Of a DNA stretch of 64,000 bases, positions 12,608 to 55,816 are shown one piece after another. The position numbers were made by a program, and so were the translations under genes. This DNA is from a virus. How positions within the stretch are numbered: position 1 is the stretch's first letter; every line of letters begins with the position of its first letter. The DNA lies in IMG/VR virus record IMGVR_UViG_3300028394_000038; one strand, given 5' to 3'. The notes below the pieces were generated by a model, which saw only the letters and a list, made by a program, of their open reading frames with translations, did not search any database and was not told the DNA's origin.

Positions 12608-13006
12608 GTGAACGTCAACGCAGTAAAAGGTAAAATTATACCGCTAGGTAATAAAATATTTGTTCATAACATGAACTTTGGCGAGCAAGTGACTACCGGC
12701 GGTATTGTATTGATGAGTGATGATGCCAAGGATCACGGCATCCATGCTAGATGGGCGCAAGTCTGGGCAGTAGGTAAAGATCATAATGAAGAATTTAATG
12801 TCGGTGATTGGATTTTAATAGAACACGGTCGCTGGACTAGGGGCATTCCATACGAGTATGAAGATGGTACAGAAACTACTATTCGTATGGTAGAAAACAA
12901 ATCTATCATTATGTGGGATACTGAACAACCTAAAGATGCCATTATTGGTCATTTAGATGGCGGTGGCCCTCCCCCAACAGTTAGCCCAGATGAGTTTTTA
13001 AGATGA
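12608..13006 (+). CDS. groES: Co-chaperonin GroES-like protein
   Basis: IIPLGNKIFV...TTGGIVL...VWAVG...VGD pattern typical of Cpn10. Confidence 0.8.
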   Translation: MNVNAVKGKIIPLGNKIFVHNMNFGEQVTTGGIVLMSDDAKDHGIHARWAQVWAVGKDHNEEFNVGDWILIEHGRWTRGIPYEYEDGTETTIRMVENKSIIMWDTEQPKDAIIGHLDGGGPPPTVSPDEFLR

Positions 13007-15215: not shown

Positions 15216-16034
15216 ATGACGCAACGTATTTTAATTATGGGATTGCCAGGTGCTGGTAAAACAACCTTAGCAGAAGCATTAAAAAATAAATTAGAAGATC
15301 GTATTACTAATGCAGAAATGGAACCAATATTTCCTAAGGTAACTTGGTTTAATGCAGATGATGTCCGCCGCAAGTATAATGATTGGGACTTCAGCAAAGA
15401 GGGAAGAATCCGTCAAAGTTTACGTATGTTTCAATTTAGTATAGAAGCAGGCACAGAATATGTTATTTGTGATTTTGTTGCTCCGCTAGTTGAAATGCGT
15501 AACAATTTTAAAGCAGACTGGACTATTTGGGTAGACACTATTCGAGAAAGTCGATATGCCGATACCAATGCGGCATTTGTTGAACCTGAACATTATGATT
15601 TTCGTATAACAGAGCAAGATGCAGAAAAATGGGCAGACTTTATTGCTGATCATATAGTTGACAATCGCAGACGCCCTGTATTTGATTGGAAGAAAGAAAC
15701 TGTGCAGATGCTAGGACGTTGGCAACCTTGGCACGATGGCCATCGTGCATTGTTTGAAAGATTGTTAGCTAAGACTGGCCAAGTTGTTATTCAAGTGCGT
15801 GATGTGCAAGGATGGCAAGGTAGTAATCCGTTTGAAGTGGCAAAGGTTAAAAGTTTTATTCGCCGTGATTTAGACCCGTTATATCAAGGTCAATATGAGA
15901 TACAGGTTGTACCTAATATTGTTCACATTGGTTGGGGTCGAGGTGTAGGCTATACTGCCGGTGAAGAAACATTCGATGACACTGTCACCGATATTTCAGC
16001 TACCAAAATACGTAAAGAACTAGGACTAAAGTAA
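15216..16034 (+). CDS. Fusion of an adenylylsulfate-kinase-like P-loop kinase and a HIGH-family nucleotidyltransferase
   Basis: GLPGAGKTT...ADDVRR...DFSKEGR; C-terminal GRWQPWHDGH...ISATKIR. Confidence 0.75.
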   Translation: MTQRILIMGLPGAGKTTLAEALKNKLEDRITNAEMEPIFPKVTWFNADDVRRKYNDWDFSKEGRIRQSLRMFQFSIEAGTEYVICDFVAPLVEMRNNFKADWTIWVDTIRESRYADTNAAFVEPEHYDFRITEQDAEKWADFIADHIVDNRRRPVFDWKKETVQMLGRWQPWHDGHRALFERLLAKTGQVVIQVRDVQGWQGSNPFEVAKVKSFIRRDLDPLYQGQYEIQVVPNIVHIGWGRGVGYTAGEETFDDTVTDISATKIRKELGLK

Positions 16035-21219: not shown

Positions 21220-22050
21220 ATGGACTATTATAATGTATTAGGTGTTCCTAGAGGTGCTAGCCCCGAGGACATTAAAAAAGCCTATAGAAAACTAGCCGCT
21301 GTACATCATCCAGATAGGGGTGGTGATACACAACAGTTTCAACAACTGCAAGAAGCATACGCAACACTCAGTGACGATCAAAAACGTGCCGAGTACGATA
21401 ACCCGCAACCACAATTTGGCGGGCCAGGTGGATTCCACTTTAATACCGGAAATATGAATGATATTTTTGGTAATATGTTTGGCGGACCGTTTGGCGGATT
21501 TCAGCAACGTGGAATGATGCGTAAAAATAAAAGTATCAATATCACTGTACAGATGACTCTTAAAGATATTCTGCATGGTAAAGATGTTATTGGTAGTATT
21601 CGATTACCTTCCGGTAGAGAACAAGCACTGCAACTTAAAATCCCTAGAGGGGTTGCAATGGGCGACAGTATTCGATTCCACGAGATGGGAGACGATACTC
21701 ATCCGCAACTGCAACGTGGAGACCTAATTGCTGTTATTCAAGAAATACCGCATCCACAGTTTGAACGTAGGTGTGCAGACCTGTACACCACTGCACCGAT
21801 ATCTGTGTTTGATACAATGCTTGGAACATCAATTAAGATTCAAACTGTAGAAGATTCAACATTGGATATCACCATACCGGCAGGTATCAATCCAGGTACT
21901 ACTATGTCATGTAATCAATACGGATTGCCACTTGGTATGCATGAACACCGACGCGGTAATTTGTATGTTAAAATTGATGTTGTTGTTCCAAAGTCAATAG
22001 ACTACGAAGATGCTGAAATATTAAGACATTTAAAATCCAAGTACGGTTGA
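21220..22050 (+). CDS. dnaJ: DnaJ-class co-chaperone (type II / CbpA-like, no Zn finger)
   Basis: J-domain with HPD, G/F-rich linker, C-terminal substrate domain. Confidence 0.88.
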   Translation: MDYYNVLGVPRGASPEDIKKAYRKLAAVHHPDRGGDTQQFQQLQEAYATLSDDQKRAEYDNPQPQFGGPGGFHFNTGNMNDIFGNMFGGPFGGFQQRGMMRKNKSINITVQMTLKDILHGKDVIGSIRLPSGREQALQLKIPRGVAMGDSIRFHEMGDDTHPQLQRGDLIAVIQEIPHPQFERRCADLYTTAPISVFDTMLGTSIKIQTVEDSTLDITIPAGINPGTTMSCNQYGLPLGMHEHRRGNLYVKIDVVVPKSIDYEDAEILRHLKSKYG

Positions 22051-22101: not shown

Positions 22102-24354
22102 ATGGTAGAACCAAGTGATCAATTACAACAAGTATTTGAAAAAGCAGTTGAAGACTGTAAAAAACTCTCGCACGAGTATGTAACGCTAGAACATTTAGTG
22201 TATGCTATGCTTTGCGAAGAAAAATTCTTTGAGCTATTAACAAATTTTGGTTCTGATACAACATATATCAAAACCAACCTAGAGCATTATTTGAAAACTA
22301 ATCTTGACGAGATTAAAATTGAAAATGCTCCAAGGGGATTTAAACCTAAAAAGACGCAGACAGTCGAGCGTGTGCTAAATCGTGCGTTTACACAGGTGTT
22401 GTTTAGCGGACGTCAAAGTATTGAACTTGTTGATGTGTTTTTAAGTATCCTTAGTGAAAAACGTAGCTACGCTGTTTATTATATTAATAAGGGCGGTATT
22501 GAGCGTGATAAATTTGCCGATTTTGTTAATAACGAACTCAACGAAGAAGAAGAAGATACTGTAGTAGATGCACAAAGCGAAAAAGCATTAAGAGCATTTA
22601 CCACTAACCTTAATGATCAAGTTAAGAAAGCAAAAGTTGATCCTGTAATTGGTCGAGTGGAAGAGCTTGAGCAAATTGCATTAGGACTAGGTCGTCGTAC
22701 TAAAAACAATGTATTATTAGTCGGAGACCCGGGCGTTGGTAAGACTGCTATCGCAGAGGGCCTTGCATTTAATATTATTCACGGTGCTGTTCCAGAATTC
22801 TTAAAAGAATACACCGTATTCAATTTAGATATTAGTGCTATGCTTGCCGGCAGTAAGTATCGTGGAGACTTTGAAGAACGTTTCAAACTAGTGCTTAAAG
22901 CTCTTGCCGGCAAAGGTAAGACTATTTTATTCATTGATGAAGCGCACATGATTAGTGGCGCAGGTGCCGGTGGTAGCAATAGTAGTAATGATCTTGCTAA
23001 CATGATGAAGCCAGCATTGAGTAAAGGCACTATCAAAGTTGTAGCTAGTACCACATGGGAAGAATATCGCAAGCACTTTGAAAAAGATCGCGCATTGATG
23101 CGTCGATTCCAACGTATCACCGTTGACGAGCCTACTCCAGAAGTGGCCATTGATATTCTTAAAGGTATTAAGAAGTATTACGAAAAGCACCACAATGCTA
23201 CTATTAGCGATGCGGCTGTTGAGTCAGCAGTTAAGTTAAGCGTTAAGTATCTGACTGATCGTAAGCTACCAGACAAGGCTATTGACTTGATCGATGTTGC
23301 ATGTTCACGCTTTAACATCAAACAAGTTGATAACAGAAGTGTTGATGTAGCTGAGATTCAATTTGAGCTTGCTAAGATGGCTAACTTACCTGAAGAAACT
23401 GTCAAAGAAAAAGAAAGTGAAAATCTTGTTCACCTTGAAAAGAATCTTAAAGGTGAAATTTACGGACAAGACGAAGCTATTACAGAAGTTGTTGACAAGA
23501 TTCTTGTTGCACAGGCTGGCTTGAAAGCAGAAAATAAACCTATTGGTAGTTTTGTGTTCATGGGCCCAACTGGTGTTGGTAAAACTGAAGCGGCCAAACA
23601 ATTGGCTAGACAATTGGGTATTCCAATGATCCGTTTTGATATGAGTGAATATCAAGAAAAACATTCTGTAAGCAAGTTAATTGGAAGCCCTCCAGGTTAT
23701 GTTGGCTTTGAAGAAAACGCAGGTCTACTGATTACTAAACTGCAAGAACAACCACATTGTGTATTATTGCTAGACGAGATTGAAAAGTCACACCCAGATG
23801 TGTCAACTATCTTATTACAGTTAATGGACAATGGTAAAGTTACAGGATCTAATGGTAAAGAAGCAGACTGCCGAAATGTAGTGCTTATTATGACCACTAA
23901 CTTAGGTGCCGCTGACGCAGATCGTAATGTTATTGGTTTTGGTAGTCAAGAAAACGACTACGAAGATAAAGAACTTAAGAAGTTCTTTGCTCCAGAGTTC
24001 CGTAATCGTTTAGATGGTATCATTACATTCAGCAAACTAAGCAAAGAAACAATGATTAAAATTGTTGGCAAGTTCCTAGTAGAACTCAAAGCTCAAGTTA
24101 ATGATAAAGGCATTAAAGTTACTATTAGCAACGAAGCTATCGACTACTTGGTAGAAAAAGGTTTTGACAGCAAGATGGGTGCTAGGCCATTACAGCGTGT
24201 TATTGACAAAGATGTTAAACGTCCGCTGTCACGCGAAATGTTATTTGGTGGATTAAAAGACGGCGGCACAGTTGAGATTGATGTTAATGACTCTGGTATT
24301 ATATTGAAAGTTAAAGAGAATGTATCAGAAGAAAACTACCAAACTATTCTTTAA
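22102..24354 (+). CDS. clpA: ATP-dependent Clp protease ATPase subunit ClpA
   Basis: Clp N domain, two AAA+ modules (GDPGVGKT, GPTGVGKT), IGF ClpP-docking loop, no ClpB middle domain. Confidence 0.92.
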   Translation: MVEPSDQLQQVFEKAVEDCKKLSHEYVTLEHLVYAMLCEEKFFELLTNFGSDTTYIKTNLEHYLKTNLDEIKIENAPRGFKPKKTQTVERVLNRAFTQVLFSGRQSIELVDVFLSILSEKRSYAVYYINKGGIERDKFADFVNNELNEEEEDTVVDAQSEKALRAFTTNLNDQVKKAKVDPVIGRVEELEQIALGLGRRTKNNVLLVGDPGVGKTAIAEGLAFNIIHGAVPEFLKEYTVFNLDISAMLAGSKYRGDFEERFKLVLKALAGKGKTILFIDEAHMISGAGAGGSNSSNDLANMMKPALSKGTIKVVASTTWEEYRKHFEKDRALMRRFQRITVDEPTPEVAIDILKGIKKYYEKHHNATISDAAVESAVKLSVKYLTDRKLPDKAIDLIDVACSRFNIKQVDNRSVDVAEIQFELAKMANLPEETVKEKESENLVHLEKNLKGEIYGQDEAITEVVDKILVAQAGLKAENKPIGSFVFMGPTGVGKTEAAKQLARQLGIPMIRFDMSEYQEKHSVSKLIGSPPGYVGFEENAGLLITKLQEQPHCVLLLDEIEKSHPDVSTILLQLMDNGKVTGSNGKEADCRNVVLIMTTNLGAADADRNVIGFGSQENDYEDKELKKFFAPEFRNRLDGIITFSKLSKETMIKIVGKFLVELKAQVNDKGIKVTISNEAIDYLVEKGFDSKMGARPLQRVIDKDVKRPLSREMLFGGLKDGGTVEIDVNDSGIILKVKENVSEENYQTIL

Positions 24355-24973: not shown

Positions 24974-24990
24974 CCTAACTTCAAAATAGC

Positions 24991-24997
24991 ATAAATA
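24991..24997 (+). promoter_or_regulatory. T4-late-like ATAAATA heading the putative internal-protein cluster
   Basis: Intergenic motif. Confidence 0.6.
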
Positions 24998-25020: not shown

Positions 25021-25365
25021 ATGAGAATGGATGAAGTTGTAAACTCAGTATTAAATCTAGAAGAAATGGATCTGCCTGACGATCTACATTTCTTCATGCA
25101 TAACGATCACAATTTCTATCGTAAAGTGTTCTTTCCTATGATTAGCAAGGTTAAAGCACACATTAAAGCAGGTAATCGTTGTCACGATGGTGTTTTTCGT
25201 CCTGTAGTTGATCATGCCGCAGAAGCATACTGCAAAAAATTTAATATTCCCGATAACCATAAGTCAGTGTTTACTAACATTGACCGTGACGAACTAGCCC
25301 GTAAGATTTTTGGTCAAGAAAAGGATCGCATTGAGCAGGGCGACTATGATGGAGACGACCAATGA
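25021..25365 (+). CDS. Hypothetical protein, putative head-internal protein
   Basis: MRMDEV... N-terminus; first gene after the late motif. Confidence 0.6.
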   Translation: MRMDEVVNSVLNLEEMDLPDDLHFFMHNDHNFYRKVFFPMISKVKAHIKAGNRCHDGVFRPVVDHAAEAYCKKFNIPDNHKSVFTNIDRDELARKIFGQEKDRIEQGDYDGDDQ

Positions 25366-26123
25366 TTTTATTAGAAGGCGGAAATGTATTTGCTAATGCA
25401 ACTCCATTTGATCACAAAGATGTTCCTGCAATACTCAAAACAATTAACGGAGCACTAGCTGGCACAGGTATTACTGCTATCCCCGTTGGCTCTGCCGCAA
25501 CTCCTAAACCAGGTAAGACTAGTGGCGATATGGATGTTATTGTTGACGAACAGGCTGTATTAAACTACTTTAAAGTCAAAGATGCTAAAGCAGGTCGTAA
25601 AGCACTTAACGATTATATCAGCAGTAAAGGTTTAGAAACAGCACAAAGCGGTATTAACGTTCACGTAAATGTTCCAGTTGGCGGAGAATTTCATCAAGTA
25701 GATGTTATGGTATCAGCTAATGCTGAGAAAGTATCTAAGTTTCACACACATACTATTCCCGATAACAGTCCGTACAAGGGTGTCAACAAACAACTAATGA
25801 TGGCTATCCTTGCCAAACAGAAAAACTACATGTGGTCAGCATGGCAGGGATTGTTTAGTCGTACACCAGAAGGTAAGAAGGGCGACCTAGTTGCTGACAA
25901 CTTAGATGATGTAGCTAAACACCTATTTGGACCTAACGGTAGTGCTAAAGATTTAGGTAGCGTAGAAAGTATTCTTGCCGCATTACCAAAACAAGAAGCA
26001 GATGCATTACTAGCAAAAGCCAAAGAAGATGCCAACTGGAAAGAAGTACCAGTCCGTCAAGAAAGTTATCGTATTGGAACTAATGAATGGTTTCGCCACA
26101 TGTTGGATAAGGTACAGTTATGA
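25362..26123 (+). CDS. Pol-beta-superfamily nucleotidyltransferase-like protein
   Basis: VGS...SGDMDV and downstream QVDVM (GS, DxD, third Asp); starts MILLE. Confidence 0.65.
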   Translation: MILLEGGNVFANATPFDHKDVPAILKTINGALAGTGITAIPVGSAATPKPGKTSGDMDVIVDEQAVLNYFKVKDAKAGRKALNDYISSKGLETAQSGINVHVNVPVGGEFHQVDVMVSANAEKVSKFHTHTIPDNSPYKGVNKQLMMAILAKQKNYMWSAWQGLFSRTPEGKKGDLVADNLDDVAKHLFGPNGSAKDLGSVESILAALPKQEADALLAKAKEDANWKEVPVRQESYRIGTNEWFRHMLDKVQL

Positions 26124-27262
26124 GATTAAGACAACTGTTTAAAGAAGCAGAAGCACCTAAACAGTTAGGTCGAGCATTTAACCACCTAGAAGATCTAGTT
26201 TTCTTTCACGGTACTAAAGGCACACTTGAAGCACTAAGTCATATCAAAGATTTTGCTAGTCAAGAAGGAGCTAATAGTATTCGTATGAAGTGGGACGGTA
26301 ATCCACAAATATATTGGGGCCGTGCTGAGGCTAACGGTCCTTTAATACTTGCAGGACATAATGGTTGGAGCAAAGGTGCTGTAACAGATAGTCCAGAAGC
26401 AGTACAAGATTTTATTGCCAATAAGTCGGGAAGTCCAAAAACTCCCGAAGAGAAAGAAGCAAGAGATAAATTTGCCAGCGAGTTCGCTAGTCTGTATCCC
26501 CTGTTTGACAAAGCTACTCCACGAGACTTCGTGGGCTTTGTATATGCAGATGGTTTGTTCTTACAACAACCTCCAGCAGATAAAGAAGGCATATATAACT
26601 TTTGTCCCAATAATAAAAGTCAAACATGTTATCATGTGAGATCCAATAGCGGATTAGGTAAGCGTATTGCTAATGCACAAGTAATGGTAGTGGGACATGC
26701 GTTTTTTCCAGAGTTTGGTATGCCAGATGCTAGTCAAAAGCCTATCAGTGACTTCAGTCAGTTCAATAGTAATCCACAGTTAATTGTTCTTGGCCCAATA
26801 TACAACAGCAAGCCTGTTAAGATTGATACTACAGCAGTCGATGCCATTGAGCAGTTTGCACAGGCGCACGGTGGTCAAATGGATGGATTCCTACAAGGGC
26901 TTCCGGGACTAAGCGACCTAAAAAATATTATCTACACTTATGTAAATCAAACTGCCAAAGCAAAACAGTTAGACAGTCTAAGTCCAAAACATTTTACAGA
27001 TTGGTTAGCTGTATCAAAGACTAGTCCAGGCAAACAACAAAAGATTAATGATCTAGTTGCGGCAAACCCAACTGCACTAGCAACTATCTTTACACTGGTA
27101 AAAAGAATACAAGCAATGAAAGACGACATCATTGATCAAATCGAAGGCGAACAGGGTGAGATATGGGACACAAATGGCGAAGGTCGTGTTCGATATGCGG
27201 ATCAAAATAAACAGCTAGGTCACGTTAAACTTGTACCTCGCAAGCGTTGGACGCCGACCTAA
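26120..27262 (+). CDS. Ligase-like (KxDG) nucleotidyltransferase-fold protein
   Basis: HLED...MKWDG motif I-like, late GEGRV and VKLV motifs; starts MRLRQLFKE. Confidence 0.55.
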   Translation: MRLRQLFKEAEAPKQLGRAFNHLEDLVFFHGTKGTLEALSHIKDFASQEGANSIRMKWDGNPQIYWGRAEANGPLILAGHNGWSKGAVTDSPEAVQDFIANKSGSPKTPEEKEARDKFASEFASLYPLFDKATPRDFVGFVYADGLFLQQPPADKEGIYNFCPNNKSQTCYHVRSNSGLGKRIANAQVMVVGHAFFPEFGMPDASQKPISDFSQFNSNPQLIVLGPIYNSKPVKIDTTAVDAIEQFAQAHGGQMDGFLQGLPGLSDLKNIIYTYVNQTAKAKQLDSLSPKHFTDWLAVSKTSPGKQQKINDLVAANPTALATIFTLVKRIQAMKDDIIDQIEGEQGEIWDTNGEGRVRYADQNKQLGHVKLVPRKRWTPT

Positions 27263-27271
27263 GGACTTATT

Positions 27272-28303
27272 ATGAAACTAAGACAGATATTTGAAGGGCT
27301 AGGACAAGAAGTTGCCATTATATTTGGTCGCTTTAATCCTCCGCACAAGGGACATAGAGCCGCATGGGAACTTGCCGCTAAGAGTCCTGTTTGGTATGTA
27401 GGTACTAACGAAAGCACAGTAGGTCCAAAAGATCCATTGCCTTACGGCATTAAGGTAGAAGCAATGACTGCTATATGGCCAGAAGTTGAAGGACATATTA
27501 TTGCAGAAACATCATGGCTAACGCTAGCCAGTCTGGTCTATGAAAAACACGGTGATGTTACACTACTATGTCTAACTGATGAAGATTGGGTTACTAAAAC
27601 CATTGTACAGTATAATGGTAAAGAAGGCGCACACGGTTTCTATAATTTTAAAACTATTAAACAAAAACCAACACCACGTTTAAGTTCAGCTACAGCATTA
27701 CGTGATGCAGTTTCTAAAGGTGATCGTGAAGCGTTTGCCACTGCCGCTGGTGTAGATGCTGATACTCCTGTAGCTGGTAAACCGTTCTTTGATCTAGTAG
27801 CAGAATACCTGCTACCATACTCTAATGCACCTGTAAAGAAAGTAGCAAAGAAAAAAGTTGCGGCTCCTGTGGAAGGCGTAACAGAAGCCACCTTAGGAAC
27901 TGCATTAGAGTGGCCAGAAGTTGCAAACAAAGTTAACAGCGCAATGAGGGCTATGGGTTGGAAAGGTCAACGTAAAGGCGATGATGCGTTTATGTTCTCA
28001 ACTAAAGGTCAAGAAACTGACGATCAGTTTTATTTTGTTATCATAGAAAATGCAGGTAACAACATGTTTCATTATGCACTAGGTACAGTAGAAGACGGTG
28101 ATCCTCATATTGATGATGCTTATAAAGGTAATCTACCCAATACTGAAGCAAGTGTTAGTGAATTAATGAACGATATACGTGAAGGCTTTGGATTGCACGA
28201 AGATGCCGCAGGTGTAGGTATCATTACTAAACAGAATTCAACTGTGGATGTAAACAAAGGTACACCCCGTAAAAATCTCAAAGCATTTAGACTAGTAAAA
28301 TGA
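27272..28303 (+). CDS. HIGH-family cytidylyl/adenylyltransferase-like protein with C-terminal extra modules
   Basis: FGRFNPPHKGH, SATALR; starts MKLRQIFE. Confidence 0.75.
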   Translation: MKLRQIFEGLGQEVAIIFGRFNPPHKGHRAAWELAAKSPVWYVGTNESTVGPKDPLPYGIKVEAMTAIWPEVEGHIIAETSWLTLASLVYEKHGDVTLLCLTDEDWVTKTIVQYNGKEGAHGFYNFKTIKQKPTPRLSSATALRDAVSKGDREAFATAAGVDADTPVAGKPFFDLVAEYLLPYSNAPVKKVAKKKVAAPVEGVTEATLGTALEWPEVANKVNSAMRAMGWKGQRKGDDAFMFSTKGQETDDQFYFVIIENAGNNMFHYALGTVEDGDPHIDDAYKGNLPNTEASVSELMNDIREGFGLHEDAAGVGIITKQNSTVDVNKGTPRKNLKAFRLVK

Positions 28304-28587
28304 AACAATATAAGATAACAAGTCAAGATTTAAATCAGGATAGTCCTGATGATTGTTATCTTGCGCCCAATGATCCTGTACATGAACTAAAAATATTATC
28401 AGGTATGGGCGGACTAGGTGCAGAAGCTAGACTACACGAGTATCGTGCCAATCAAGGTAGTAACATAAGTGTTACTGGAGATAGCAAGGGCGAACTAATG
28501 AAGAAGCATAACATACAACCTGGAACTAAAGAATGGTTTAAGTTATGGTTTAGTCGTCCTTATCTTACCGGAGAACCTCCCGTATGA
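28300..28587 (+). CDS. Hypothetical protein
   Basis: C-terminal IQPGTKEWFKLWF resembles IGTNEWF at the end of the 25362 protein. Confidence 0.65.
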   Translation: MKQYKITSQDLNQDSPDDCYLAPNDPVHELKILSGMGGLGAEARLHEYRANQGSNISVTGDSKGELMKKHNIQPGTKEWFKLWFSRPYLTGEPPV

Positions 28588-28991
28588 CTTTACGTGAACT
28601 GTTTGAACATAAAAAAGGCATTCGTGCTAAAAAATATAACAAGAAACCTAAGAAGTTTATTGAACCAATCAAGCCAAAGAAAGCAGAAGCGCCCCATACA
28701 ACAGAAGACCTAGACGAAGGTTGGAAAACTAAAGTTGCAGGTGCCGCAATGGCAGCGGCAAATATGTTAGGAACACCGGCTCATGCTAACGATGTAGAAT
28801 ATAAACTTCCCGATATTGTTGCTCATATTACTATGACAGTAAATGGCAAGACGATTGAAAAAGAAATCAATCTAGGTACTGAATATCAAAGTCCGGCAGA
28901 AGCAGAAAAAGCTGTTGCTAAATGGTTAAAAGAAAAAGGTATTAAAAGTTATAGAATAGATTTACAACGTGCTAATACAAATAAAGATTAG
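28584..28991 (+). CDS. Putative head-internal protein
   Basis: MTLRELFE N-terminus, Lys-rich. Confidence 0.6.
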   Translation: MTLRELFEHKKGIRAKKYNKKPKKFIEPIKPKKAEAPHTTEDLDEGWKTKVAGAAMAAANMLGTPAHANDVEYKLPDIVAHITMTVNGKTIEKEINLGTEYQSPAEAEKAVAKWLKEKGIKSYRIDLQRANTNKD

Positions 28992-29025
28992 AAAAATATA
29001 TTAAATATTGCATGAGGAAAATATT

Positions 29026-29358
29026 ATGAAAATGCGCGAACTATTAGAAGCAAAAACTAAAAAAGCCGAAACACCCAAGCCACGTAACTTTGTAGCTAAA
29101 AATGCTATCAATACTGGCGCTGGCGCACATAAAGACAAAAAGAAAGCCGCAAAGCAAGGTGATGCTAAACACAAGAATAAAGACTATGAAATGGCTGAAT
29201 CTGCTAGTGCAGGTGCTACTAGTGCGGCTAACGTAGGAGTTGGGCCAGTATACCCTAACAAAACAGGTAAAACTAATAAGAATAAAGACGGTACAACAAA
29301 AAATGCATTAGATGTTAAGGGTACTAACTTACTTACTGGTGGCAGCTTAAAACGATAA
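29026..29358 (+). CDS. Putative head-internal protein, Lys-rich (start revised to ATG 29026)
   Basis: MKMRELLE; GAGG SD; TAAATA at 29002-29007. Confidence 0.65.
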   Translation: MKMRELLEAKTKKAETPKPRNFVAKNAINTGAGAHKDKKKAAKQGDAKHKNKDYEMAESASAGATSAANVGVGPVYPNKTGKTNKNKDGTTKNALDVKGTNLLTGGSLKR

Positions 29359-29361
29359 ATA
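29355..29361 (+). promoter_or_regulatory. T4-late-like ATAAATA
   Basis: Motif before 29385. Confidence 0.6.
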
Positions 29362-29384
29362 CATAAAGACAACGGAGTTACCTC

Positions 29385-30425
29385 ATGCAACCACAAGTAC
29401 AAATGCAAGGACCAGATGACGAAGGCGGAATGGCCCGTGCTGACCTATATAGAGCTGCCAAGCACTCTATGAAACTGTTTCAAATGATTCAGAATAACCA
29501 ACAGTTAGAAGGTTGGGTACAAGCAAAGATTACTAAAGCGGCAGATTACTTAGACAGTATCTACCACTATATGGAATATCAAGTAAAGTTTGGACAAGGC
29601 GCAGTTGCGTCAAGTGTTGATGACATTACTGGAGATATGGAAACTGCCGCTCGTGCCGCAGAAGAAGCCGATGACGAAAAAATGGAAATGGAAGAATCTA
29701 TGAACTACGAACAAAAACTACAGGCACTATTAGAAAGTGCTGTTAAGAAAGCCAAGAAAGATTATGATGGCGATGGCAAAGTTGAAACAAACAAAGATGA
29801 AGTTTGGGGATCACGTGCCAAGGCTGCGGCAAAAGCAGGCAAGCCATTCAAAGAAGGTTTCCCAACTGTCGATGATGCAAAGAAAAATGCACAGGGTACA
29901 GCAGGCATGAAGCCAGGCGAAAAGAAAAAGTCTAGCACTGGTGGTACTATTGAAAAGACCAAGACCGGTATCAAACATACTGCTGGTAAAAACTACAGTG
30001 GCAAAGGCGTTGCTGAAGCAAAGTTTGATCCGCTAAAGCACGTTAAGAATCCTACTCCAGGTGAGAAGAAAGCCGCTAAAGATGTCAAGCGTGGTAGCTA
30101 TGCAGATCGTGCGGCAATGTTAAAGTCAGCTGAAAAAGACGGACGTTTAAAAGAAGCTGATGGCAAATGCAATCACTCTGCTAAAGGTGAGAAGTGTCCA
30201 GTACACGGTCTAAAAGAATGTGGTAGTACAATGGCATACGAAGCGGCAAAGCCAAGCGCAGGCATGAGTAAAGGTGCTAAGTCAGCATTAGTTAAAAAAG
30301 CTAAGGCAGGCGGTGACGTTGGCAAACCAGGCAAGAGCTTTGACAAGGTAGCTAAAGCCGCAGGTGGTGGTGAGAAAGGTAAGAAGATTGCCGCTGCCGC
30401 TATGTGGAAAAACGCTGCCAAATAA
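29385..30425 (+). CDS. Putative head-internal/core protein with basic modules
   Basis: LEGWVQAKITKA N-domain; Lys/Ala/Gly-rich blocks separated by hydrophobic-x-E sites. Confidence 0.6.
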   Translation: MQPQVQMQGPDDEGGMARADLYRAAKHSMKLFQMIQNNQQLEGWVQAKITKAADYLDSIYHYMEYQVKFGQGAVASSVDDITGDMETAARAAEEADDEKMEMEESMNYEQKLQALLESAVKKAKKDYDGDGKVETNKDEVWGSRAKAAAKAGKPFKEGFPTVDDAKKNAQGTAGMKPGEKKKSSTGGTIEKTKTGIKHTAGKNYSGKGVAEAKFDPLKHVKNPTPGEKKAAKDVKRGSYADRAAMLKSAEKDGRLKEADGKCNHSAKGEKCPVHGLKECGSTMAYEAAKPSAGMSKGAKSALVKKAKAGGDVGKPGKSFDKVAKAAGGGEKGKKIAAAAMWKNAAK

Positions 30426-30437
30426 GGAATAGACAAA

Positions 30438-31292
30438 ATGGATATGAAGAAGATATTACAAGCCTTTGACGGGGCAACTACGAAGAAGCCTGTTCAAGGT
30501 GCTAATGATATGAAAAAATTTGTATCTATTATTCGAGAAAGCAGTAATCCATATACACCTACACAAGAATCTGTTATTACAAGTTTTGAAGAAGGTTCAG
30601 TAGGCGGTGATGCTAATGCGTTCTTATTGGCTGCTGATACTATCCAAGACGAAGTAATGGCACAGGTCAATAAGATTAAGATTAACGCAGACGAAGCTAG
30701 CCTACGTGACATGATGGATAAGTTTAATGCGTTCATGACTGCTTATCACAATGTTGGCAAAGGTATTCTACAACCAGACATGTTTAACGACAGCATGGGC
30801 GAAAGCACAGAAGAACAAGTTGATGAAGCTGGTGCATTCCGCAAACCTGGTAGTCCAACAGCATACGATAGAGATTATGCAAGTAGCGTAAGTGGTATGG
30901 GTAGAACTAATGGGCCAAAAGGGTATGACAGTGATGGCAATCCTCAAGGCGGCGGATATGATGAATATCCTAATGAGCCACGTGGTCAACGTTATCAAGC
31001 TCCGCAAGACAGACCTGTAATGACTGGCATGTTCTTTTATAATGTACAACCAGGTCAAGAAGAACTTGCCGCAAGTTTAGGTGTTAAGAAAACAAAAAGT
31101 GGTAAGTGGGCAAAGACCAAATATACTACTAGCGGTGATTCTTTTAAATTTCAAAAGGGCAGAGCTGATAAAGAGTTTGGCGTCGGCAAATGGTGGGCTC
31201 CTAAAACAGAAAGTGTTGAGCAAGGTGTGGCGGAAGGTCTAAGTTTTAAAGATTATTTTAATTTAACAGAAGCTAAAAAAGGTCTTGAATAA
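30438..31292 (+). CDS. Putative head-internal protein
   Basis: MDMKKIL/MKKFVSIIRES; several hydrophobic-x-E sites. Confidence 0.55.
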   Translation: MDMKKILQAFDGATTKKPVQGANDMKKFVSIIRESSNPYTPTQESVITSFEEGSVGGDANAFLLAADTIQDEVMAQVNKIKINADEASLRDMMDKFNAFMTAYHNVGKGILQPDMFNDSMGESTEEQVDEAGAFRKPGSPTAYDRDYASSVSGMGRTNGPKGYDSDGNPQGGGYDEYPNEPRGQRYQAPQDRPVMTGMFFYNVQPGQEELAASLGVKKTKSGKWAKTKYTTSGDSFKFQKGRADKEFGVGKWWAPKTESVEQGVAEGLSFKDYFNLTEAKKGLE

Positions 31293-31681
31293 TGAGATAC
31301 TTAGCTGTTGCACTAATATTGTGCTTAACTGGATGTGCTAGTATTAAGGAAATGATTCCTAGTTTTCAAGACGTTAATCAATCAGCTAAGATTATTGATG
31401 TGCGTCAAAGTGTAGCACAGTTAGATTGCAAACAACCACATGCACCGCAAGTTAAACAGATTAAAGATAACCTAGAATGGTTTGAACTATATAGTACTAG
31501 TAAAGGCGAAAGACAAAACGATGTATTGCGTTTGATTAAACCAATGCAAGAAACTGTAGATGATTTTTACAAACGTAGTACAAGTGAAAAGCAAGGTAGC
31601 GATACCTATTGCGAGATTAAGAAAAAGTTAATGACTACACAGGCCGAACGTGCGGCTAGTGTAGTACTAGGGAGATTCTAA
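31292..31681 (+). CDS. Lipoprotein
   Basis: Lipobox LTGC at residue 15. Confidence 0.7.
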   Translation: MRYLAVALILCLTGCASIKEMIPSFQDVNQSAKIIDVRQSVAQLDCKQPHAPQVKQIKDNLEWFELYSTSKGERQNDVLRLIKPMQETVDDFYKRSTSEKQGSDTYCEIKKKLMTTQAERAASVVLGRF

Positions 31682-31914
31682 TGAACGAACTTATGCAATG
31701 TATTAACTCAGGTAAAGGCTGGGCGGCTGAACGTGCTAATACAGCATATCAGATTGGACAGGCATTAGAATCTGGACAGATTGATCCAAGTGAAGCAAAA
31801 GAGTTATTAGAAGATTTGGTTAGAACAGATAGATTAGATGCAGAAGCAGACGATATGGCTCTTAAGGCCATGTTAGTCACAGGCATCTATGCAGTAATAC
31901 AGATATGTGGCTAA
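31681..31914 (+). CDS. Hypothetical protein
   Basis: Translationally coupled ORF. Confidence 0.6.
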   Translation: MNELMQCINSGKGWAAERANTAYQIGQALESGQIDPSEAKELLEDLVRTDRLDAEADDMALKAMLVTGIYAVIQICG

Positions 31915-31915
31915 T

Positions 31916-32350
31916 ATGGAACAGTTAATCAACGCATTAAAAATAGCATTTGCCAGTGAATATGCATTTGCATTAAAAGCACAAAACTTTCATTGGAACA
32001 CTGAAGGTCCAGACTTTTACGAGTTTCATTTGTTGTTTGAAACAATCTATGACGAAGTTTACGGAAGTATTGATGCATTTGCAGAAAATATTCGTAAAAG
32101 CGGTGCATACACTCCTGCTAGCTTATCTAGATTTAGTATGTTAACCACAGTGGAAGATGAGAATCAAGTTATTGATCCACGATCAATGACTGCTGAACTG
32201 TTAGCTGACAGTGATAAACTAGCACAGTTAATGGCAATGGTTTATAAAATGGCTGATGCCGCAGGCGAGTTTGGTCTATCTAACTTCTTAGCTGATCGTC
32301 AAGATGCACACCGCAAGCACAGCTGGTTCCTACGTTCTACATTAAAATGA
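31916..32350 (+). CDS. dps: Dps / ferritin-like protein
   Basis: NFHWN..GPDFYEFH..F...Y...ID..AE.IR; HRKHSWFL. Confidence 0.9.
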   Translation: MEQLINALKIAFASEYAFALKAQNFHWNTEGPDFYEFHLLFETIYDEVYGSIDAFAENIRKSGAYTPASLSRFSMLTTVEDENQVIDPRSMTAELLADSDKLAQLMAMVYKMADAAGEFGLSNFLADRQDAHRKHSWFLRSTLK

Positions 32351-32489
32351 GAGAAAATGAATATCCAGTCTATCCAGAAGATGATGGCACCGACCGTCCT
32401 CGCAACCCTTACAGCCCTGTATAATGGCCTAGCATTGTTTGGGTGCGGCCTAGCTGGTATTCCTTTGACTATTGGAGATTTACAAGATT

Positions 32490-33212
32490 ATGAGAGCAAG
32501 TGAATTTATAATCGAATCATGGAGTCAGAAATACAAAAAGAGTATTAACTGCTCGCATCCTAAAGGCTTTAGTCAACGTGCTCACTGTGCCGGCAGAAAG
32601 AAACACAACGAAAGTGTTGAAATGGAAATGGTCTGCCCTGATTGCAACATGTGTGAATCCCATGGCAATCTTAGTGAAATTAAAAAAGGTGCCAAAGACA
32701 GCAACGGCTTTACTAAATGTTGGTCCGGATATCATGCCGCAGGTACAAAGAAAGGTAAGAACGGTTCAGTACGTAACTGTGTAAAGAACGAAAGCACAGA
32801 GCTAGAAGAAGAGTTTGATCTTATTGAATCGATTATATCCAACCTAGCTTTACGTAATGGTGTTAACGAAGATGCTGTCTGGGAAGATTTAGAAACACTC
32901 ACAGACGATGAGCTATATGTGTTTGCTGTTACACAACCAGTTAATGAAGATTGGCAGAAAGTTAACAAACACGATAAGACTTCGGGCATGAGTCAAAAGG
33001 CTGTCAATGCCTATCGTAGAGAAAATCCAGGTAGCAAACTAAAAACTGCCGTAACGACTAAACCTAGTAAACTAAAAAGAGGTAGCAAAAGTGCCAAGCG
33101 TCGATCAAGTTATTGTTCTAGATCCGCTGGACAAAAACGTATGCATCATATAGATTGTTCAAAGACTCCAGATAAGGCAATCTGTGCGGCACGTCGTCGT
33201 TGGAACTGTTAA
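32490..33212 (+). CDS. Putative head-internal modular basic protein (start revised to ATG 32490)
   Basis: MRASEFIIE; Cys/Lys/Arg-rich modules. Confidence 0.65.
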   Translation: MRASEFIIESWSQKYKKSINCSHPKGFSQRAHCAGRKKHNESVEMEMVCPDCNMCESHGNLSEIKKGAKDSNGFTKCWSGYHAAGTKKGKNGSVRNCVKNESTELEEEFDLIESIISNLALRNGVNEDAVWEDLETLTDDELYVFAVTQPVNEDWQKVNKHDKTSGMSQKAVNAYRRENPGSKLKTAVTTKPSKLKRGSKSAKRRSSYCSRSAGQKRMHHIDCSKTPDKAICAARRRWNC

Positions 33213-33973
33213 TGCGAGCAAAAGAGTTCCAGCCAAAAAAACTAGTTATCTTTGATATAGATGACACGCTGGTTCATACACAAACTAAAGTCCACGTGGT
33301 CAAAGACGGACAGGTAACTAAAGAACTTAACAGTCATGAGTTTACACACTATAAACTACAACCGGGAGAACAGTTTGATTTTGAGAACTTTCGTAACGCA
33401 CATGACTTTTTCCACAAAAGTAAACCGATCATTCCAATGATGAATCAACTCAAGCAAGACATCGCTACTGGTAACAAAGTAGTAATGGTAACTGCTCGTG
33501 CTGACTTTGATGATAAAGAGCTATTCTTAGATACATTCCGCAAGTATGGTGTAGACATGGCAAAAGTTCATGTTTATCGTGCAGGCAATATGACTGGCAA
33601 GATTCAAACAGAAGAAAAGAAAAAAATTATTATACGTAACTTGTTAGACAAGGACATTTATACTAAAGCCATAATGTATGATGATGCTGTTCCTAACTTA
33701 GAATCATTTGTAGAACTTAAGAAAGAATATCCAAAGACCAAGTTCTATGCCTGGCATGTTAGCTTAGAGGGCAAAGCAAGCGAATATCAACGTACCGATG
33801 AAAATTTTGCTGATGGAAAGCACCCAGAAGATAAAGGTGATGCTAAACGTCACGGCATTAACACTAAAGCATCAGTAAGCAGTTTACGTAAAACTGCTAA
33901 ACAAGGTGGCCGTAAAGGTCAACTAGCACACTGGTTAGCAAATATGAAAGCAGGGCGAGCAAAGAAACATTAA
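33212..33973 (+). CDS. HAD-superfamily phosphatase (PNKP-phosphatase-like) with a basic C-terminal module
   Basis: FDIDDTL, VTAR, K, YDD motifs; starts MRAKEF. Confidence 0.75.
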   Translation: MRAKEFQPKKLVIFDIDDTLVHTQTKVHVVKDGQVTKELNSHEFTHYKLQPGEQFDFENFRNAHDFFHKSKPIIPMMNQLKQDIATGNKVVMVTARADFDDKELFLDTFRKYGVDMAKVHVYRAGNMTGKIQTEEKKKIIIRNLLDKDIYTKAIMYDDAVPNLESFVELKKEYPKTKFYAWHVSLEGKASEYQRTDENFADGKHPEDKGDAKRHGINTKASVSSLRKTAKQGGRKGQLAHWLANMKAGRAKKH

Positions 33974-33975
33974 AG

Positions 33976-34083
33976 AACACACTACCTTAGGACCAGTACT
34001 CGTTACTGACTCAAGTGTGCGCCGGCTGCTGGCGCAGGACGGCCCGATTCGCTACCGGGAATCCTGAAAGTGAGCATTTTTTT
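33976..34083 (+). ncRNA. Candidate structured non-coding RNA
   Basis: GC-rich intergenic segment with abutting stems, a possible pseudoknot and a terminal U run. Confidence 0.5.
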
Positions 34084-34098
34084 ACGGCTAAATATTAG

Positions 34099-34797
34099 AT
34101 GATTATATTATATACGCTAATAGTAACACATATCACAATTGTCTGCGTTACCCTGTTCCTACATAGAGGGCAAGCGCATAAGGGATTTGTTTTTAATCCT
34201 GTACTAGAACACTTTATGCGCTTCTGGTTATGGCTAACAACCGGAATGGTTACTAAGCAGTGGGTAGCTATACATCGAAAACATCACAGATTTAGTGACG
34301 AACCCGGTGATCCTCATAGTCCGCATGTATATGGTATATGGCATGTATTATTTAAAGGTGCAGGATTGTATCATTCTGCAAGTAAAGACGCTGAAATGAT
34401 CCAACAATACGGTGTAGGCACACCCGATGATTGGATTGAACGCAACGTGTACACCCAACACAGTCGCCTGGGCATTCTCCTAATGTTAGTTATAAACTTA
34501 TTGTTATTTGGGCCGTTAGGCCTTATAGTGTGGGGTGTACAAATGATATGGATACCATTCTGGGCCGCTGGTGTTATCAATGGAGTCGGACATTGGGTTG
34601 GGTATCGTAACGGCGAAACAAAGGATCAAAGCCGCAATATTAGCCCTTGGGGTATTATTATCGGCGGTGAAGAGCTACATAATAATCATCACCTTAATCC
34701 AGCTAATCCTAAACTAAGCAGAAGTTGGTTTGAGTTTGACATGGGTTGGATGTGGTTTACCATATTTAAAACGCTTAGACTAGCTAAACTTAGATAA
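34099..34797 (+). CDS. Membrane fatty-acid (delta-9 acyl-CoA type) desaturase
   Basis: His boxes HRGQAH, HRKHH, HNNHH; TAAATA at 34089-34094. Confidence 0.9.
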   Translation: MIILYTLIVTHITIVCVTLFLHRGQAHKGFVFNPVLEHFMRFWLWLTTGMVTKQWVAIHRKHHRFSDEPGDPHSPHVYGIWHVLFKGAGLYHSASKDAEMIQQYGVGTPDDWIERNVYTQHSRLGILLMLVINLLLFGPLGLIVWGVQMIWIPFWAAGVINGVGHWVGYRNGETKDQSRNISPWGIIIGGEELHNNHHLNPANPKLSRSWFEFDMGWMWFTIFKTLRLAKLR

Positions 34798-34800
34798 ATA
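34794..34800 (+). promoter_or_regulatory. T4-late-like ATAAATA (likely leaderless transcript)
   Basis: 5 nt before ATG 34806, no SD. Confidence 0.55.
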
Positions 34801-34805
34801 TTACT

Positions 34806-35189
34806 ATGAGAGCAAAAGAATTTATTATTGAACAAGGCCACGGTGGGACAAAGAAGATTGATCCTACACATAAAGCCGCGATAAGAAATGTTATGACATT
34901 TCCTAGTATGAATCAAAGTACAGGAAGTGCCTACTTAGGTTGGCGCATGGGTATTGCTCTTGCAGGCGCACCTGATTATCCTACCAAGATGGAAGCAGAT
35001 AACTGGATTGGTGGTGATCCTTTACTATCACCGTATACTAAAGAAGAAATGGATATGGTCAAAGCTGCCGCTAAGGCTGTAGGCGGAGGTGTTCCAGAAA
35101 ACTGGACTGGTAAACGTAGTGAAGAACTTCCTGGTACACATAAAACAAGTCCAGTAGCTAAACCAAAAAGAAACAAATACGGCGTATGA
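34806..35189 (+). CDS. Putative head-internal protein
   Basis: MRAKEFIIE. Confidence 0.65.
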   Translation: MRAKEFIIEQGHGGTKKIDPTHKAAIRNVMTFPSMNQSTGSAYLGWRMGIALAGAPDYPTKMEADNWIGGDPLLSPYTKEEMDMVKAAAKAVGGGVPENWTGKRSEELPGTHKTSPVAKPKRNKYGV

Positions 35190-35500
35190 AAATAAACGAA
35201 CTATTAACAGAAGCACCTATTGACTTTGATCCTAGTGAGCCAATGAATCCCTTAGTACATAGTCATCAAGGCGCTAATCCAGGCAAGCTACAATATCGTA
35301 TGCTACGTGCGGCAGGTCAGTTAAAGGATCTTGCTAAAAGAGCAGAACACGCTAGTCCATTAGAATGGGAAACGATTTCTAAAAACTTTTCAGAACTAGC
35401 AATGAACGTTGAACAGATTAGACATGGTCTAGAAGAACTGGCCGCGCAACGTAAAAAAGGTGGCGTCCGTTCAAGAGGCATTGATCCAAACATTGGATAA
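35186..35500 (+). CDS. Putative head-internal protein
   Basis: MKINELLTEA. Confidence 0.65.
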   Translation: MKINELLTEAPIDFDPSEPMNPLVHSHQGANPGKLQYRMLRAAGQLKDLAKRAEHASPLEWETISKNFSELAMNVEQIRHGLEELAAQRKKGGVRSRGIDPNIG

Positions 35501-50534: not shown

Positions 50535-50872
50535 AGATAGAAATTCCAGCAGAAGGTATTATGAAAACAGGCGATTGGGGAGATAGTAAAGTCTACCGAA
50601 TCGCCTGTAATTGTCACGATGAATCCCACAATCACAATGTATGGATAGAAGCAGACGACCATGATATTGTTGTAAACATTTATACTACAGGCAAAACTAA
50701 CTGGTGGAGTAAAACACGATGGTATCATATTTGGACATTACTAACCAAAGGTTATATCGATACCGAATCTAGTGTGCATTTAACCAAACAACAAGCTCTT
50801 AACTATGCAAATGTGTTACAATTGGCAATTAGTGATGTAGAAGAATTTAGGAAGAACAATGTCAAAAATTAA
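50531..50872 (+). CDS. Hypothetical protein
   Basis: CxC...H motif; coupled ORF. Confidence 0.6.
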   Translation: MKIEIPAEGIMKTGDWGDSKVYRIACNCHDESHNHNVWIEADDHDIVVNIYTTGKTNWWSKTRWYHIWTLLTKGYIDTESSVHLTKQQALNYANVLQLAISDVEEFRKNNVKN

Positions 50873-55780: not shown

Positions 55781-55787
55781 GCAGAAA

Positions 55788-55815: not shown

Positions 55816-55816
55816 C

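Follow-up and report, generated by a model that had tools for sequence, protein, structure and literature searches.

Why would a phage encode, back to back, three nucleotidyl-transfer enzymes of three different folds? The question is raised by a 64,000-nucleotide (nt) stretch of viral DNA (hereafter the window; IMG/VR record IMGVR_UViG_3300028394_000038, positions numbered from its first letter), in which three adjacent open reading frames (ORFs) occupy positions 25362..28303 of the plus strand: NT1 (25362..26123, 253 amino acids), NT2 (26120..27262, 380 amino acids) and NT3 (27272..28303, 343 amino acids). The reading frames of NT1 and NT2 share 4 nt, and a gap of 9 nt separates NT2 from NT3. 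A preliminary description, made from the sequence alone, had read them as a Pol-beta-type nucleotidyltransferase, a ligase-type protein with a KxDG motif and a nucleotidyltransferase of the HIGH type, and had proposed that all three carry a targeting peptide and are pre-packaged in the virion. All three ORFs are present at exactly these coordinates, and the motifs that had been quoted for them are conserved in homologues. Our analyses indicate that the three genes are functionally linked. Our tentative answer, held with slightly less than even confidence, is that they constitute, probably together with the small upstream gene up1, a conserved late-expressed module that would fill and seal breaks in nucleic acids and would partly be carried in the phage head.

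Folds and conserved residues of the three proteins

Family searches, alignments and, for NT1 and NT2, structure comparison upheld the assignment to three fold classes. For NT1, 287 relatives were found among 1.84 billion representatives, and 58 of them, down to 25% identity, were aligned. G43, D56, D58, Q112 and D114 are invariant in these 58 homologues and S44 is kept in at least 90%; by its residues, this GS/DxD/D pattern is the signature of Pol-beta nucleotidyltransferases. The AlphaFold (AF2) model of NT1 (predicted local distance difference test score, pLDDT, 94.6; predicted template modelling score, pTM, 0.85) matched the Pol-beta fold. Foldseek placed human Pol lambda and Pol beta on top (E = 5e-8, about 205 columns), and ranks 1-8 in VIA-align were occupied by family X polymerases only (Z 10.5-11.9, root-mean-square deviation (rmsd) 3.1-4.0, 159-181 residues aligned), with alignments spanning model residues about 10-202. 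The individual comparisons gave Z 11.9 for the palm and thumb of Pol beta (rmsd 3.2, 172 aligned), Z 10.9 for Pol lambda, Z 10.8 for TdT, and Z 10.7 for Pol X of African swine fever virus (ASFV; chain 5hr9, 162 of 176 residues aligned). RNA uridylyltransferases ranked next (Z about 9), their alignments covering no more than about 100 residues of NT1, and CD-NTases were among the lower matches (Z 6.6-8.3, about 100 residues). Over the whole model, family X exceeded any RNA transferase, with higher Z and about 70 more residues, including the thumb. The 8-kDa (lyase) domain and the helix-hairpin-helix fingers domain are absent from NT1; the palm comes first, and the match to Pol beta runs from residue 142. 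Because family X fills the top ranks and uridylyltransferases and CD-NTases align over only about 100 residues, the description that best suits NT1, as modelled, is that of a minimal Pol-X-like enzyme reduced to palm and thumb. By fold, it is not the generic tRNA- or CD-NTase-type enzyme that had been considered before; its best matches are the family X DNA polymerases, over both palm and thumb.

A relationship between the NT1 profile and gp086 of cyanophage S-WAM2 was considered and rejected (hhalign probability 3). One NT1 homologue of 1002 amino acids (P0491) also has Tad3 (Thoeris inhibitor) and DUF5661 domains, and several other NT1 relatives are very long multi-domain chains of up to 1308 amino acids with a polyprotein-like appearance.

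NT2 is a member of DUF6267 (PF19782; E = 1.1e-15, 58.4 bits against a Pfam cut-off of 27), a family for which a full-text literature search returned no papers. In an alignment of 30 sequences that included distant fused forms, residues E24, D25, K57, D59, G60, P62, G67, P163, K334, E354, G355, V357 and K370 are invariant, and W58 of the KWDG motif is kept in at least 90% of both these sequences and a separate 12-sequence alignment. Conserved further along, in this order, are D144/L146, E354-G355-x-V357 and K370-L-V-x-R374. By eye, and against the ligase consensus, we take these elements to be motifs I (KWDG), III (around D144), IV (EG) and V (K-L-V-x-R). About 150 residues lie between H193 and E354, with a long helical region following the strand that ends at H193. 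The model of NT2 has a pLDDT of 91, and its residues 1-16, a disordered N-terminal leader, score under 50 and lie outside the fold.

Comparing this model with known structures showed a modest resemblance to ligases. The highest VIA-align matches were the Naegleria RNA ligase (5cot, Z 6.9, 184 residues aligned) and the RNA ligase REL1 (1xdn, Z 6.8, 191 aligned), with T4 Rnl2 at Z 6.3 (2hvq and 1s68), and lower rows held the T7, T4, LigIV, LigI, LigIII, Chlorella virus, LigD and ASFV ligases and the vaccinia capping enzyme. In total, about 30 of the 50 rows were ligases, capping enzyme or a related cap-binding fold; the ligases scored Z 4.4-6.9, values that fall within what the tool calls common, and differences within about 1 count as ties. 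NT2 thus resembles the Rnl2, REL1 and Rnl5 types (T4 Rnl2, T. brucei REL1, Naegleria NgrRnl) in its KxDG motif and in having them as its nearest folds (Z 6.3-6.9, 166-191 aligned). As far as can be read from the secondary structure of the model, NT2 appears to be without an OB domain; RNA ligases of the Rnl2, REL1 and Rnl5 types also appear to do without one. In contrast to these enzymes, NT2 has a long helical region before the EG motif and no significant sequence or profile similarity to them, and the RNA ligase family PF09414 misses DUF6267. We take NT2 to be a divergent enzyme of the ligase (lysine-nucleotidyl) superfamily, a ligase/capping-like adenylyltransferase as far as motifs and model suggest, its established membership being that of DUF6267 only.

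NT3 matched the PHROG family phrog_3041, 'cytidyltransferase' (E = 4.4e-13), and its neighbours in Atlas are viral CTP_transf_like clusters (score 0.97), 46-69% of whose members have PF01467. The N-terminal part (27272..27850, plus strand) consists of a leader (MKLRQIFE) and the HIGH-motif nucleotidyltransferase domain, which together make up residues 1-190, and the C-terminal part (27851..28303, plus strand) consists of a lysine-rich linker, an exchangeable middle and a conserved tail. In 23 aligned sequences, FGRFNPPHKGH is invariant except for K26, and a second motif, T134-R144, is wholly invariant, including S138, S139, T141 and R144; we take this S/T-rich stretch ending in R to be the second signature of the HIGH family. 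The leader residues M1, L3, F7 and E8 are likewise invariant. The middle region of the 23 homologues cannot be aligned and is exchanged among relatives as in a cassette, while the tail (AAGVGIITKQN..DVNKG..K.LKAF, 28205-28300, plus strand, a single occurrence in the window) is nearly invariant in at least 90% of them. A profile search of PDB sequences returned NadR (1lw7, E = 0.03) over the HIGH region only, and a direct PDB sequence search returned chance-level rows only. Judged by family match and motifs, NT3 belongs to the phage 'cytidyltransferase' family of HIGH-motif nucleotidyltransferases and bears a weak likeness to NMN adenylyltransferases (NMNAT). Homologues of its HIGH domain occur in 120 cultured phage records, among them T4-like cyanophages and jumbo phages of the 121Q/GAP32 type.

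Elsewhere in the window, a 272-amino-acid protein (15216-16034, plus strand) has a P-loop kinase at its N-terminus (APS-kinase/KTI12-like, residues 5-100) and an NMNAT-like HIGH domain at its C-terminus (residues 162-233); it is possibly a NadR-like salvage enzyme with reversed domain order.

Linkage, fusion and late-type context of the three genes

The preliminary description had named synteny or fusion in related phages as a check, and both were found. We compared 80 IMG/VR loci that hold NT2, many of them near-duplicates. NT1 lies within 1.6 kb of NT2 in 58 of the 74 loci with upstream flank, and NT3 lies beside NT2 in 45 of the 68 with downstream flank. All 62 loci with both flanks are linked: 27 have NT1 and NT3, 21 NT1 only and 14 NT3 only, with none lacking both. 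Fusions of two and three domains occur as well. DUF6267 is also present in 24 of 44 long NT1 homologues scanned, in both domain orders, and three-domain chains are arranged either as HIGH-NT1-DUF6267 (P0423, P0502, P0509, P0477) or as NT1-DUF6267-HIGH (P0501, P0506). Because one or both of NT1 and NT3 stand beside NT2 in 62 of 62 both-flank loci, and because the domains are fused in other relatives, NT1, NT2 and NT3 are functionally linked.

One further gene accompanies the trio, and a second may do so. The gene up1 (25021..25365, plus strand, 114 amino acids, leader-like N-terminus MRMDEVV) goes with NT2: an up1 homologue ends less than 60 nt before NT2 in 14 of the 16 NT1-less loci with enough upstream flank. 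It had no match in Pfam or PHROG, and in Atlas it fell in unnamed viral clusters only, with scores under 0.8. HAD-type domains are fused to the trio's domains in P0477 (HIGH, DUF2608/HAD, NT1, DUF6267) and P0506 (NT5C), and the window itself encodes an HAD-type phosphatase (33212..33973, plus strand; leader MRAKEF..., DxDxT motif, HAD family matches), which may be a candidate end-healing partner of the three enzymes. In the cultured cyanophages S-WAM2 and S-SZBM1, a DUF6267 gene is followed directly 3' by a gene annotated 'cytidyltransferase'.

The three genes had also been placed in a cluster of late motifs. Over the window as a whole, ATAAATA is depleted (10 sites against 27.9 ± 5.6 expected). 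The sites lie at 5554, 7409, 10548, 16943, 19626, 24991, 29355, 34794, 53885 and 63210, the last on the minus strand, and seven of the ten end 20-30 nt before a same-strand start codon, several of them before tail-fibre-like genes, which is the placement that the core of a late promoter should have. The site at 24991-24997 ends 24 nt before ATG 25021 of up1, the first gene of the operon, and is the core of a longer motif, CATAAATA (24990..24997, plus strand), that occurs once in the window, where 6.2 sites would be expected. For the exact T4 late consensus, TATAAATA, the window has no site (8.0 ± 2.8 expected), and the shorter ATAAATA seems to serve as the late motif here. Going by the T4 consensus, we presume CATAAATA/ATAAATA to be a T4-type late promoter. 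Because ATAAATA precedes 25021 and is next found only at 29355, before the start at 29385, the segment from up1 to 29358 looks like one late unit, as far as such motifs define it. Metatranscriptome contigs from three runs overlie parts of the trio, two of them near-identical to it (27203-27402 and 26767-27030, 2 differences each); we do not count them as proof of expression, since such libraries can hold DNA and the contigs come without transcript ends.

Leader peptides and candidate head packaging

Two of the three proteins begin with a short leader of the form M-K/R-x-x-E/Q-hydrophobic, often followed by L/I-x-E: NT2 starts MRLRQLFKE and NT3 starts MKLRQIFEG, whereas NT1, with MILLEGGN, does not have it. 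Among distinct N-termini in the 80 loci, a loose regular expression for the leader matched 22 of 22 for up1, 45 of 46 for NT2 and 27 of 31 for NT3, compared with 0 of 29 for NT1. Three of the four NT3 sequences that were missed are still leader-like, with N or K at one position, and some distant NT1 homologues do start leader-like. The statement that all three enzymes carry the targeting peptide therefore stands for NT2 and NT3 and fails for NT1. A strict form of the pattern occurs at exactly four ORF starts (26120, 27272, 28584, 29026) and nowhere else in six frames of 64 kb. The loose form marks 11 of 19 ORFs within 25.0-35.6 kb against 9 of 70 outside (Fisher p = 1.4e-4); starts of this type also lie at 28584, 29026, 32490, 33212, 34806 and 35186, and a weaker one at 25021. 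L/I-x-E follows seven of nine window leaders; in NT3 it reads I-F-E, and in NT2 the L is at P4, not P3.

The N-termini of T4 IPII/IPIII, gp24 and the Alt-derived protein, taken from the T4 record, resemble these leaders. IPI-III, gp24 and Alt of T4 have N-terminal peptides of about 8-10 residues, again M-K/R-x-x-E/Q-hydrophobic ending in L/I-x-E, beside which MRAKEFIIE, MKINELLTE and MKLRQIFE of the window can be set. For IPIII, residues 4 and 7 of the capsid-targeting sequence are reported in the available text to serve targeting and residues 8 and 10 processing (PMC9026906). As in T4, the leaders stand on varied non-structural proteins. A gp21-type protease is encoded in a close relative, whose contig has a Peptidase_S77 prohead protease (E = 1.4e-27) in a head cluster ordered as T4 67-68-21-22-23. 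Unlike in T4, the presumed cargo would be nucleic-acid enzymes and not small basic inhibitors or an ADP-ribosyltransferase.

Cyanophage virions offer a second comparison. A 362-amino-acid cytidylyltransferase is listed, with 2 peptides, among 30 virion proteins of S-SZBM1, in a paper whose main text does not name the DUF6267 neighbour (PMC9146016). In the genome record, its gene starts MRFRQFIIEA, has FGRFNPPH and lies directly 3' of a leaderless DUF6267 gene, so that it shares with NT3 the HIGH family (tblastn 30% identity, E = 5e-8), the FGRFNPPH motif, the same kind of leader and the position after DUF6267. NMNAT-like proteins are reported in the available text on S-SCSM1, S-CBWM1 and S-CREM2 virions, for which the authors proposed an NAD+ role (PMC9602691, PMC10665884). 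Unlike the phage that encodes NT3, the cyanophages S-SZBM1, S-SCSM1, S-CBWM1 and S-CREM2 are without NT1, and the available text of the papers on them mentions neither the DUF6267 neighbour nor a polymerase partner.

Because of the T4-like leaders, the relative's protease, the late-type motif and the virion-listed cyanophage homologue, it is plausible, by analogy with T4, that NT2 and NT3 are pre-packaged in the head. That NT1 is leaderless counts against packaging of the module. Two further points do so as well: the prohead protease was seen in the close relative's contig and not in the window, and the cyanophage authors warn, in the text available, of carry-over in CsCl preparations (PMC9602691, PMC10665884).

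Alternatively, the three could be ordinary cytoplasmic late enzymes, the N-terminal motif being a feature of translation initiation or folding, or a tag for some other assembly, and not a capsid signal. In favour of this, NT1, which is the most frequent fusion partner of NT2, has the leader on none of 29 distinct N-termini, and the loose pattern is common and not enzyme-specific, with 129 of 400 neighbouring plus-strand ORFs matching; the cyanophage homologue, too, was detected in virions by two peptides only, under the authors' caution on contamination (PMC9146016, PMC9602691, PMC10665884, in the text available). However, only 5 of 100 spurious minus-strand ORFs match the loose pattern, and the motif sits at exact N-termini, lies outside the fold in the NT2 model (residues 1-16, pLDDT <50) and is kept across homologues whose bodies are only about 25-30% identical. 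It is also closely like the processed N-termini of T4 IPII/III, gp24 and Alt, with L/I-x-E after seven of nine window leaders, and it heads the small first gene of the relative's head cluster, at the gp67 position, which starts MILRELF. We consider a purely cytoplasmic role rather unlikely.

The leaders extend beyond the trio. A plus-strand block at 25021-35500 holds at least nine leader-type genes, including one for a DUF6321 protein whose true start is probably 32490, and is a candidate set of head-packaged proteins; it would thereby offer a list of candidates for delivery into the host by a jumbo phage. Two small lysine-rich genes of the block, 28584..28991 (MTLRELFEH) and 29026..29358 (MKMRELLEA), both on the plus strand within the late unit from up1 to 29358, matched no family and may be analogues of the T4 internal proteins. 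The protein of 29026-29358 contains SASAGATSAANVG, much like SATAGATSAGNVA near the N-terminus of the relative's major capsid protein (L081 3195-3446), where it stands just after a likely L-S-E cleavage site.

Possible repair function and genome setting

A role in fill-and-seal repair is the reading we favour because NT1 best matches family X DNA polymerases over palm and thumb. NT1 would add nucleotides at the 3' end within a gap, and NT2 would seal the resulting nick through a K57-AMP intermediate. NT3 would make a small nucleotide-linked molecule, at a guess NAD+ or another adenylyl donor or cofactor for the ligase step. The target would be broken nucleic acid, most likely the incoming phage DNA itself. 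The leaders would load NT2, NT3 and up1 into the prohead core, where a gp21-type protease would cut at L/I-x-E. The packaged enzymes would then be ready at injection, and leaderless NT1 would perhaps be made only in the cell.

Two viruses provide precedents. The ASFV virion carries Pol X, a ligase and an apurinic/apyrimidinic (AP) endonuclease, which on one view mend the viral DNA before it is replicated (PMC12172490, as far as its available text goes). In line with the ASFV set (O174L, NP419L, E296R), NT1 has palm and thumb only, the 8-kDa and fingers domains being absent from both polymerases; in ASFV, the polymerase acts together with a ligase of the virus, and both belong to the packaged set (PMC12172490, same text). 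The two sets differ in that the phage proteins share no detectable sequence family with those of ASFV, and in that the phage ligase partner is DUF6267, with a helical region of roughly 100 residues and no canonical ligase match in Pfam. A HIGH transferase is the third partner in the phage, no AP endonuclease is tied to the phage module, and the phage activity is predicted. In Phaeocystis globosa virus 16T, the protein PgVPolX combines a Pol X with an NAD+-dependent ligase in one chain and was shown, according to the available text, to fill and seal base-excision intermediates (PMC5537341). The 24 of 44 long NT1 homologues with DUF6267 are fusions of the same polymerase X-ligase kind. Unlike PgVPolX, with its full Pol-beta-like core, lyase activity and LigA-type ligase, the phage proteins comprise a minimal polymerase and a ligase family that is uncharacterised, and NT1 and NT2 are separate genes in the window.

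Several results stand against fill-and-seal repair of DNA. For all three families, the enzymatic activities are predictions. NT1 matched no family of Pfam, PHROG or NCBIfam, polymerase models included, and a direct sequence search of the PDB returned nothing; the one near-significant match of its profile among PDB sequences was the uridylyltransferase Tailor (E = 0.0013), over the nucleotidyltransferase core only. The domains that it lacks, the 8-kDa and fingers domains, are those that bind gapped DNA in cellular Pol X enzymes. For NT2, the structural matches are modest (Z at most 6.9), and the best-ranked neighbours are RNA ligases, not DNA ligases. Foldseek with the NT2 model returned nothing at E <= 0.001, with ligases recurring among the weak rows; the NT2 profile found no ligase among PDB sequences, its one row, GldL (E = 0.11), being irrelevant, and a direct PDB sequence search with NT2 returned nothing. 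Aligned by hhalign, the DUF6267 profiles gave non-significant probabilities both with T4 Rnl2 (0.04 and 0.72%) and with the close relative's own canonical DNA ligase (0.11), although in the latter alignment the KWDG of NT2 falls on the KLDG of the canonical ligase. Nor is a complete base-excision route visible: the denV-type glycosylase PF03013 was found in none of five related records, which are mostly fragments.

The role of NT3 is the weakest link, and the idea of cofactor supply is a guess prompted by the fusions and by analogy with PgVPolX. NT3 scored 17.9 bits with the Pfam family CTP_transf_like (PF01467), below the cut-off of 21, and 13.5 bits (E = 0.041) with the NCBIfam NMNAT model NF002243, whose cut-off is 127. 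Most of the 120 cultured phage records with a HIGH-domain homologue are without NT1 or NT2. The protein at 15216-16034 gives the window a second HIGH transferase, whose HIGH domain matched an archaeal NMNAT model (E = 5.9e-5, under its cut-off). Because NT3 scores below the cut-offs, is widespread without NT1 and NT2, and shares the window with a second NMNAT-like domain, a link through NAD+ between NT3 and the ligase is a guess.

The five related records were also searched for ligases. A canonical ATP-dependent DNA ligase (PF01068) was present in four of the five, including both close relatives, and for this reason we rejected the replicative ligase as a role for DUF6267 in this lineage. In the cyanophages S-SZBM1 and S-WAM2, PF01068 was found in neither genome, and there DUF6267 is a possible replicative ligase. 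The searches with PF09414 and PF01068 did not pick up the DUF6267 genes of the related records; the cyanophage DUF6267 members scored E = 9e-109 and 3.7e-130 with their own family. The NAD+-dependent ligase family PF01653 was found in none of the five.

If the substrate were RNA and not DNA, the same genes could form a unit resembling RNA repair or editing, in which NT1 would be an RNA nucleotidyltransferase (terminal or template-guided), NT2 a nick-sealing ligase of the Rnl2/REL1 type, and the HAD phosphatase would heal ends. Its task would be to restore tRNAs or mRNAs cut by host ribonuclease defences, like T4 Pnkp with Rnl1 or the trypanosome pair of uridylyltransferase and REL. The three best non-helical structural neighbours of NT2 are RNA ligases (5cot, 1xdn, 2hvq/1s68), Tailor is the best profile match of NT1, with uridylyltransferases structurally next at Z about 9, and P0477 and P0506 combine the trio with HAD phosphatase domains. 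A DNA ligase is already present in four of the five related records; the RNA ligase families PF09414 and PF09511 were found in 0 of 5 each, a weak point given that the PF09511 controls were also empty. On the other side, family X outscores any RNA transferase on NT1 over about 70 more residues, including the thumb, and the Z gaps among the ligase matches of NT2 are within about 1, ties by VIA-align. No polynucleotide 5'-kinase is tied to the module, and a DNA-filled head fits an early DNA task better, which is a matter of argument only. An RNA-directed unit appears rather unlikely to us.

A bolder form of fill-and-seal repair would be an injected kit, in which a minimal polymerase X and a new ligase branch (DUF6267) would be joined by a HIGH transferase as supplier of the ligase cofactor, for example NAD+ regenerated from NMN. 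Such a kit would repair genomes damaged by sunlight or nicked by nucleases before transcription starts. In this full form we regard it as distinctly improbable; if true, DUF6267 would be a new, cofactor-coupled class of nucleic-acid ligase, and the enzyme families of the kit would be newly recognised in phages, in giant T4-related phages of lakes and seas.

Very improbable is a counter-defence or nucleotide-metabolism unit, in which NT3 would restore NAD+ that host immunity has depleted, while NT1 and NT2 would have signalling nucleotides as their targets, for synthesis, modification or destruction, or would nucleotidylate a protein: the weak NMNAT likeness of NT3 (NadR E = 0.03, NCBIfam NMNAT E = 0.041), the Tad3 domain in P0491, the CD-NTases among the lower structural matches of NT1 (Z 6.6-8.3) and the NAD+ role proposed for the NMNAT-like proteins of cyanophage virions favour it, but PADLOC models had no match to NT1, NT2 or NT3, the CD-NTases align about 100 NT1 residues and are outranked by every family X polymerase, one of the 44 long homologues scanned has the Tad3 fusion, and NT1 is fused in 24 of these 44 to a KxDG ligase-fold partner, which is not known to have a role in nucleotide signalling.

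If filling and sealing is the function of the trio, bacteriophages would have their first family-X-type polymerase in NT1; in a 2022 review of phage polymerases, the available text names only ASFV under viral family X (PMC8775771). Such a function would also give DUF6267 a role and would explain why the puzzling 'cytidyltransferase' is found in cyanophage virions. With families this abundant, the module would then matter for the survival of aquatic phages whose DNA is damaged or attacked by host nucleases. As small, self-contained enzymes, the polymerase and the ligase would also be of practical interest as tools.

The host genome of the trio is that of an uncultured T4-related freshwater jumbo phage of roughly 360 kb. 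A close relative's contig of 167.5 kb, with 95-97% protein identity over the trio locus, is rated 46% complete, which gives a genome near 360 kb, and the sequencing runs that contain the window DNA are labelled as freshwater, lake or river metagenomes. A blastn search against 50,697 phage records found no DNA-level relative of the region. Metagenome protein homologues at E <= 0.001 numbered 764 for NT1, 1175 for NT2 and 1369 for NT3, on contigs of up to 365-383 kb. The window is gene-dense with a G+C content of about 35-42%, and its genes include those for a family B DNA polymerase, clamp loader, PhoH, thymidylate synthase and DHFR, as well as ClpA/B-like and DnaJ chaperones and tail-fibre-like genes.

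Just 5' of the late operon, and kept in synteny with that operon across many relatives, lie genes for a full DnaJ (21220-22050; J domain plus C-terminal domain) and for a 750-amino-acid double AAA+ protein of the ClpA/ClpB type (22102-24354), both on the plus strand as are all genes named below. A Cpn10-like protein (12608-13006) is part of the same phage-encoded chaperone set. GTP cyclohydrolase I (E = 2.7e-39) and a nearby radical-SAM protein (47011-47781 and 50859-51716) may belong to a 7-deazaguanine pathway that serves to modify DNA or tRNA. A 172-amino-acid ORF (11829-12347) matched nothing but a section of the NTPase domain of DNA polymerase III alpha (E = 1.4e-9), and it may be a fragment or a split gene. 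Finally, the window holds unusual auxiliary genes (31907-32350, 34099-34797, 48662-49360 and 54686-57055), encoding a ferritin/Dps-like protein, a fatty-acid desaturase, a membrane protein of the Bax-inhibitor-1 family and a MoxR-type AAA ATPase beside a DUF2201 metallopeptidase/VWA protein.

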